Assembly (NCBI GenBank): GCA_017499595.2
Contig: CM038998.1
Span: 744,001-808,000, forward strand
Length of the DNA: 64,000 nt
Direction of reading: 5' to 3'
Source: Psilocybe cubensis
Taxonomy: Eukaryota
The notes under the pieces are model-generated. The model was not told where the DNA came from. It did not search any database and was given only the letters and a program-made list of their open reading frames with translations. Shown here in pieces: positions 15,405 through 17,500 of this stretch (positions within the stretch are counted from its first letter, which is position 1; the number at the start of each line of letters is the position of its first letter). Position numbers and translations under genes: made by a program.

Positions 15405-17500
15405 CTATCTATCAACCTCACTGAAAACCGACAAATAGCACGTAAGCGTTCCGACACATCGTAAAACACCTGAAAGAGATGACATACCCGAACACAAGAT
15501 CCTGTAAGAGCGCAGAGAAAGGAAAAAAATCTCAGTATCCCTAATTCAACTCCATGGACACCGGATGACGTACCATGGTACCGATAATAGCAACTGCATC
15601 TGCAAGCATGTGCTGTTGGAGGAGAAACAAAGTTCGGTCAGTTCAATCACGTCGTGTGTACGAAAGCAGGCAAAATGTCTGACATCTACATTATTAAAAA
15701 TGGTGTTAGAGCGGGATGTGGTAAGTCGGTATGACAGCGACAAGGTACGTACGTCTCATCATGAAGTCGGAACCGGCAAGGTGGGCAAATCCTGGGGCGC
15801 GAATGCTGCATCGGTATGGTCTGTTTGTGCCATCACTGCGTAGATATCAGAAAATGTGGGTCAACTAGAATTGCGACTACACCAGAAATTAAGTACGTAC
15901 GAGACCAGGTATACAGCCATTTCTCCCTTAGGAGCTTCAATGGCGCTGTAGGTTTCCCCAGCAGGCACAGAGTAACCTTCGCTGAAGATCTAGGGGACAT
16001 ATGTTAGACTGTAAAATATGCCACTCTCAACGTAAACACATACTTTGAAGTGATGAATCAAAGACTCCATGCTTTCCTTCATCATGGCACGGGGAGGAGG
16101 AACAAGTTTATGGTCATCGACCTTGATAGCACCGGTAGGCATCTTGTTCAGACACTGGCCAATAATGCGAAGACTCTCTCGCATTTCCTGCACTCTGCAT
16201 AGATAACGATCGTAGCAATCTCCGTTCTTGCCGACGGGGATGTCAAACTCGACCTGAATTTTGGGATCAGTGAGAACCAACAAAAAGACGGAAAAAAGCT
16301 ACTAACTTCAGCGTACTTGTCATAGGGAGCAACTTTGCGCAAGTCCCAAGGAACACCACTGCCTCTAAGCATGACGCCACTGAAACTATAGTCCAGGGCC
16401 TGCTTTGCTGTCACGGGCCCGATTCCGATAGTTCGCTCTTTCCAGATACGGTTCCCAGTAACAACTTCTTCAATCTCATCTATTCTGCTGCCGAACTGGG
16501 TGGCCCACTTGAAGATATCATCAAGAAGTCCGTGGGGAAGGTCAAACGCGACACCACCAGGTCGAACATACGCAGCATGAAGACGAGCTCCAGAAACGCG
16601 TTCATAAAACTCCATGAGCTTCTCGCGTTCTTCGAAACCCCAAAGGAAAGGCGTAAGACCACCGACGTCCATGACGTGGGTAAGGACGGCCATGAGGTCT
16701 AGTAACTTCATCAGAAAATCAGAGGTATTTCAGCTGTAAACAAGACTCACGATTCAGGATACGAGTAATTTCACCAAACAAGACACGAATCCATTGGGCT
16801 CTATCGGGAACTTGGATATTGAGGAGTTTTTCAACGGCCAGTGAATAGCACAATTCATTGGTCACTAAATGGGGTCTGGGTGAGAAAGCGTGTGGTTCGA
16901 AAAGACAACACAAGCATACTCATAGATACGTAGTCCAAGCGATCAAAGTAAGGTAGGGCCTGGATATACGTCTTATATTCGATTAATTTCTCTGTGCCAC
17001 GGTGAAGGAGACCAATGTGCTATAGGCCAACTTTAGTCGGAGAAAGAAGTTGTTGTGAAGCACTCTTACGGGATCCGCACGCAAGATTTCTTCTCCATTC
17101 AACTCAAGAATCATTCGGAGCACACCGTGAGCAGCGGGATGTTGGGGTCTATGCAAGCATCATCATTCTATCGCCTATGACTTGTGGTTGACGGTTCCTT
17201 ACCCAAAGTTGACTGCAGTGTTATGGTCAATATGACAACTTGGACGATTGAAAGAGTTTACCACAAACCTGTAAAGTGCCTCATTTTGGTATCCTCTTGT
17301 GGTCCAGCCAAAATTTCATGAGCAGTCATGCCATGAAGATCCTCCACTGTGTGGTAGTCGAACCCGGACTTCCTGGCCTCCTCGAGAGTTGGGTCTGCCT
17401 GTCGCAGAACGGATGAAGATGAGAGATTTCGCGAAAGCAGACGAGATTTTGGCGCAGCCCTCGTTGTGCGCGCCAAAGAGCGGAACAAGGTGGAGGCCAT
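15405..17500 (-). CDS. NDUFS2: NADH:ubiquinone oxidoreductase 49-kDa subunit (nuclear-encoded, mitochondrial presequence), many introns including micro-exons
   Basis: [29 protein letters not shown]..., [66 protein letters not shown], and C-terminal [22 protein letters not shown] (TAG at 15405-15407). Confidence 0.98.

Follow-up and report, generated by a model that had tools for sequence, protein, structure and literature searches.

An exon of only two nucleotides lies in the nuclear gene for NDUFS2, the 49-kDa subunit of respiratory complex I, in Psilocybe cubensis. It is almost certainly a constitutive internal exon placed between two ordinary short U2-type introns. The exon is confirmed as real, it is well supported, and it is conserved widely across mushroom-forming fungi. 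The original prediction of an obligate 2-nt exon at this site is backed by the net removal of 138 nt, by conservation in orthologs, by an intron-free contig from a relative and by the single copy of the gene. NDUFS2 is a core single-copy respiratory gene, and a sizeable fraction of public mushroom records mis-models it at this site. The wrong models corrupt the NDUFS2 C-terminus that is used in alignments and proteomics. The locus also offers a well-conserved natural setting for studying an exon smaller than the contacts of the spliceosome, and it comes with natural controls that carry both introns, one or none. Exons of 1-3 nt are already known in fungi, and the known lower limit of exon size is unchanged. 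The part most worth a further look is the conserved atypical donor of the downstream intron (intron B).

The Host Gene

The window analysed here is a stretch of 64,000 nucleotides of P. cubensis DNA (contig CM038998.1). Its NDUFS2 gene was identified by a PF00346 domain (E 2e-47) and by likeness to 41 PDB sequences of solved structures (E up to 1e-30), and the relatives found are named 49-kDa subunit, NUCM or NDUFS2. A search using the largest exon found one copy in the 46.6-Mb genome. The 13-exon model encodes 459 aa with zero internal stops. The coding region and the exons that frame the site or are themselves very short are as follows.

15405..17500, minus strand: coding region of NDUFS2 (the 49-kDa subunit of complex I), 459 aa, split into 13 exons by 12 GT-AG introns of 50-72 nt
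17203..17212, minus strand: exon 2, a 10-nt micro-exon, its letters printed between the sides of the joint in both RNA-like contigs
15753..15835, minus strand: exon 9, 83 nt, ending in the MMR codons and the first base (C) of His437; both RNA-like contigs cover it
15574..15612, minus strand: exon 11, 39 nt, 13 residues, from the gene model and spanned by both RNA-like contigs
15488..15501, minus strand: exon 12, a 14-nt micro-exon, its letters printed between the sides of the joint in both RNA-like contigs
15405..15420, minus strand: coding part of the last exon, 16 nt including the stop, from the gene model and the RNA-like contigs

Elsewhere in the window, an exon of a DUF34/NIF3 gene (PF01784) lies at 9934-10449 on the minus strand, and 12 other open frames between 10.5 and 26 kb gave no Pfam match.

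Anatomy of the Two-Base Exon

The two-base exon and its flanking introns occupy 140 nt of the minus strand. YTRAY is the branch-site consensus, and it was used for scoring.

15684..15685, minus strand: exon 10, the 2-nt micro-exon AT, bases 2 and 3 of codon 437 (His437)
15686..15752, minus strand: intron A, the gene's ninth and 67 nt long, running from donor GTACGT to acceptor TAG; donor fixed by the contig joint at 15753
15613..15683, minus strand: intron B, the gene's tenth and 71 nt long, running from the atypical donor GTCAGA to acceptor CAG; from the sequence and the donor composition
15705..15709, minus strand: putative branch site CTAAC of intron A, a YTRAY match, whose branch A (15706) lies 20 nt from the end of the intron
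15637..15641, minus strand: putative branch site CTGAC of intron B, a YTRAY match, whose branch A (15638) lies 25 nt from the end of the intron

When the sequence was re-read, the coordinates and letters originally given for intron A, AT and intron B were all found as claimed, and so was the phase mismatch: the upstream exon ends in phase 1 and the downstream exon begins in phase 0. The two introns also appear to be complete, as had been proposed, each having GT...AG ends, a normal length and a branch-like site. Inclusion of AT keeps the last 22 conserved residues in frame. In the model, omission of AT shifts the frame and the protein ends at 454 aa with no conserved tail. The four mis-spliced forms are 451, 454, 511 and 451 aa long and all of them lose the conserved C-terminus.

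Single-intron solutions were enumerated between 15835 and 15574 for every frame-restoring GT-AG, GC-AG and AT-AC pair and for three non-canonical pairs, 55 in total. Each GT-AG or GC-AG option adds or deletes residues of the conserved stretch and none equals 138 nt; among the 55 listed pairs, GT-AC alone removes 138 nt from the true donor. In the window alone, AG-A[T/C]-GT falls at a usable place in 1.4% of 20,000 shuffles, and therefore the case rests on orthologs. The RNA of the 166-nt region folds worse than its own shuffles (z +2.35), so no hairpin is proposed.

Sequencing Runs of P. cubensis Across the Site

Four of the five listed runs from the same organism were compared: two are DNA-like and two (X1 and X2, from one study) are guessed to be RNA, none of the five being recorded as RNA. 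The DNA-like runs cover 15250-17600 unbroken, with 8 and 9 substitutions and no gap. The original prediction had raised an assembly indel as a possible source of error; in both DNA runs, 15613-15752 is free of indels and substitutions.

The RNA-like runs each yield one contig, in which all introns are absent. Both contigs join 15753 to 15614 and skip 138 nt (67+71, not 140), which excludes the 140-nt skip as the main form. Over 15250-17555, X1 has 1,590 letters and the model predicts 1,590. The joint is drawn as a GT..AC skip, the two kept letters are not printed, and the length fits AG as well as AT. Both contigs are fully spliced and the form that lacks AT is found in neither; they are assembled contigs of guessed RNA origin, and assembly drops rare forms, so there is room for skipping at a low rate.

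Conservation in Orthologous Loci

Orthologs were collected with one degenerate pattern for the peptide just upstream, which is blind to the downstream sequence, and this gave at least 120 stretches. Among those listed, 88 have intervening sequence at this position, 30 have none and two (L050, L110) are unreadable. Conservation of an AG-NN-GT unit had been suggested as a check, and it holds: AG-A[T/C]-GT is present in 87 of the 88 loci with intervening sequence among the matches listed. In all 87 listed loci whose interval measures 101-130 nt, AG-AT-GT or AG-AC-GT occurs no closer than 40 nt to either end; L115, which belongs to this set, carries one additional base at its donor and seems error-prone. 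The 87 loci listed correspond to 71 distinct sequences and to 24 clusters at 70% identity. The unit is found in 24/24 of these listed clusters, against a shuffle mean of 0.25 and a maximum of 3 in 2,000 shuffles, while other spacings of 0-11 nt are reached in at most 5/24.

In 24/24 clusters among the matches listed, intron A has a counterpart of 48-70 nt and intron B one of 49-68 nt. Over the same listed clusters, the intron lengths and the total interval are spread across all three frames (10/7/7), and YTRAY is matched in 20/24 A introns and 18/24 B introns. The split codon reads C|AT in 56, C|AC in 27 and A|AT in 4 of 87 loci (86 listed loci and the window, with L115 left out). The letters of the micro-exon vary as coding bases do, encoding His or Asn only and leaving the wobble base free. 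Three loci (L023, L090, L116) have AAG and not YAG as the intron A acceptor before the micro-exon. In L100, a second copy of part of the 3' coding sequence lies just downstream of the stop, which is a partial tandem duplication or an assembly join.

On a coarse tree, the two-intron loci stand beside named proteins of Agaricales, Boletales, Russulales, Thelephora and Clathrus, and they are sister to Serendipita. The order names Agaricales, Boletales and Russulales are those to which we take the genera to belong. The tree was built with FastTree from loci offering 900 nt or more upstream and no fewer than 200 aligned residues; its backbone is weak and it gives coarse placement only, and the best-hit genus labels are noisy for short loci. 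The 2-nt exon appears to be old within the Agaricomycetes.

Spliced Relatives and Intron Loss

The letters of the exon can be read in a spliced relative. Over about 1.1 kb L081 contains no intron, and it is 97-98% identical to the exons of the genomic loci L028 (630/641 letters), L033 (1103/1136) and L070 (1113/1142). Its alignment to them breaks off at 787 and picks up again at 790; the two skipped letters, AC, match the micro-exon of L028, L033 and L070. These letters are neither the AG nor the GT of a splice site, so the relative includes the exon in its spliced sequence. Five more intron-free contigs (L042, L050, L065, L071, L103) also read His or Asn and then His at this point, and they have no genomic partner above 95-96%; L103 carries AT where its 93-95% partners carry AC. 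Skipping of the 2-nt exon is seen in none of the six intron-free Agaricomycete-like contigs.

L064 is genomic by its other introns and runs 1.5 kb further downstream. It has lost intron A exactly, and CAT is followed by the donor of intron B. This locus falls near Psathyrellaceae proteins on the tree. It is also without counterparts of window introns 7 and 11, and it keeps counterparts of 6, 8, 10 and 12. The 30 listed loci that have no intron here were sorted manually: 14 are genomic by other introns (11 Tremellomycete-like and 3 Serendipita-like), 9 look spliced or intronless and 7 are too short to classify. The Serendipita-like genomic loci L047, L062 and L079 have introns elsewhere and neither intron here, and their sister loci L005, L007 and L061 have both. 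A joint loss of both introns is likely in these three loci, judging from the sequence comparison.

Public Protein Records

Among 105 named Agaricomycete records, 92 reach the motif and 13 are without it. The right residues at the split codon (HH or NH) are already carried by 35 of the 92; in another 45 the reading derails directly after MMR, and the remaining 12 are of the correct length but carry a different residue (R in 7, Q in 3, G and S in 1 each). R and Q would arise where the donor GT or the acceptor AG replaces the two exon bases. The ten records of right length with R or Q at the split codon are P0004, P0009, P0025, P0142, P0154, P0169, P0171, P0088, P0189 and P0190. It had been foreseen that gene predictors and aligners would miss such an exon. 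This was borne out by the read aligner, which drew a GT..AC joint, and by the 57/92 named records that are not HH or NH, an upper estimate because unusual models tend to be chosen to represent their clusters and no more than 15 members of each cluster are listed. Among public gene models, 'A retained' and 'B read through' readings both occur, and they are uninformative about the order of splicing.

A hand-picked set of 26 proteins from short contigs was also read: 24 carry MMR-HH, none has QH or RH, and 2 were missed by the pattern. The transcript origin of these 26 is inferred, and proteins that stop early or run into an intron were left out of the set.

Alternative Explanations

The exon could be real and serve as a regulated switch, in which skipping, or retention of a flanking intron, lowers complex I under some conditions. 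Loss of the conserved C-terminus in all four mis-spliced forms and the consistently atypical donor B would suit such a switch. Accessible parts of published work point the same way, since the introns that flank plant micro-exons are more often detained (PMC8831610) and a regulated micro-exon is reported in Trichoderma (PMC11121469). However, both RNA-like contigs are fully spliced and skipping occurs in 0/6 of the intron-free Agaricomycete-like contigs, although assembly drops rare forms. The unit is also dispensable, given the Serendipita-like and Tremellomycete-like genomic loci with neither intron and L064 with one. We therefore regard regulation of this kind as unlikely.

A single 138-nt GT...AC intron (or intron A followed by an AT...AC intron) would keep AG in the mRNA and give MMR-Q-H. 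Among the listed pairs no other single intron from the true donor measures 138 nt, the read aligner drew the joint of X1 and X2 in this way, and 3/92 named records do read QH. But the AC that it requires before the final AG is present in only 9/87 orthologous intervals and 2/24 clusters among the matches listed, and is missing in 78/87. It leaves the invariant internal AG-A[T/C]-GT unexplained, QH is absent from the 24 short-contig proteins with the motif, and L081 carries AC where this reading needs AG. Such an intron is very improbable here.

Two abutting short introns that are removed successively resemble the stwintrons of fungi, nested twin introns in which removal of one intron creates the splice site of the other (PMC6616335, accessible part). 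Yet the donor, branch-like site and acceptor of both introns are uninterrupted in the primary transcript, and 138 rather than 140 nt are removed, so that two bases stay where a stwintron would leave none; a nested arrangement is scarcely credible. An assembly error, with bases lost or added in the window and a single ordinary intron in truth, is a negligible prospect: a frame mismatch across an intron is often an indel in general experience, but this one is refuted by the two DNA runs, which cross the stretch unbroken and show neither a gap nor any change in 15613-15752, and the identical phase mismatch recurs in 87 other loci among the matches listed.

Order of Splicing and the Donor of Intron B

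The 2-nt exon would never have to be recognised as a unit. Each intron would be recognised over its own length by intron definition, the first removal would fuse the two bases to the neighbouring exon, and the intron that remains would then be a normal one. Two bases are too few for an acceptor complex and U1 together, and therefore the introns are most likely removed one after the other. Intron definition with two consecutive steps is, in our judgement, very likely. Short fungal introns are paired by intron definition according to the accessible part of a study of ascomycetes (PMC6616335), and by analogy the same may apply to basidiomycetes. We lean towards removal of the upstream intron A first as the main order, which is hinted at by the transcription of A before B, by the atypical donor B across lineages and by the fact that the sole single loss seen is that of A. 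Singly spliced intermediates, which would report on the order, were not seen in the contigs.

Donor B is not T at +6 in 20/24 clusters (neighbouring donors A 2/24, C 8/22, D 1/20) and not a purine at +3 in 11/24 (1 each for donors A, C and D) among the matches listed; the Fisher tests give P from 1e-7 to 3e-3, values that are too generous because related clusters are counted as independent. Its signature has no fixed base at +3, A in most cases at +4, G at +5, and A or C at +6. The signature is kept across mushroom orders and persists while the intron bodies have diverged. The atypical donor could come from inheritance of one ancestral donor.

The exon is best regarded as what remains after two introns were inserted two bases apart within conserved coding sequence, with no regulatory role needed. 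It is possible, if doubtful, that donor B is a selected timing device, a weak donor that makes B wait until A is gone. U1 on donor B would then mask the acceptor AG of intron A, which lies two bases further upstream. Were this true, the donors behind other Agaricomycete exons of 1-3 nt should share the donor B signature, which would provide a sequence rule for splicing order as well as a natural system for exons below the spliceosome footprint.

Comparison With Known Systems

The comparisons made here draw on the accessible portions of the sources cited. The long-read annotation of Coprinopsis cinerea counts 57 two-nucleotide exons, spread over 50 genes, together with 13 exons of 1 nt and 27 of 3 nt (PMC12230235, Cell Genomics 2025). 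Omission of the 1-3-nt exons creates another stop in 63/89 gene models (PMC12230235). These exons belong to the same fungal class and the same size class as the NDUFS2 exon. The study is a genome census, and the portions consulted give no cross-species conservation of a single 2-nt exon; NDUFS2 is not named in the five of its supplements that were searched (PMC12230235). No publication on the NDUFS2 2-nt exon was found in the open-access literature, which omits most subscription journals.

The 1-nt micro-exons of plant APC11 and VPS55 are likewise deeply conserved and usually mis-annotated, and in some lineages they are lost along with both introns (PMC8831610), as the NDUFS2 unit probably is. 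VPS55 is alternatively spliced (PMC8831610), whereas alternative splicing was not seen for the NDUFS2 exon in contigs. Ascomycete stwintrons involve short introns packed tightly together and removed through consecutive U2 reactions under intron definition (PMC6616335). The NDUFS2 unit probably resembles them in this, but it is not nested and its two exonic bases stay in the mRNA.

Fusarium CYP621A P450 genes contain a conserved obligate exon of 1 nt (PMC12940212). Like the NDUFS2 exon, it is obligate, completes one codon of a conserved motif and was found by phase mismatch; its orthologs keep it too, and an intronless relative serves as the control (PMC12940212). Unlike the NDUFS2 exon, it consists of one base, occurs in one ascomycete genus and belongs to a non-essential gene family (PMC12940212). 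Its authors propose a rescue by a cryptic exon (PMC12940212). The wobble variation and the clean loss of a single intron in NDUFS2 fit instead two ordinary introns that lie two bases apart.
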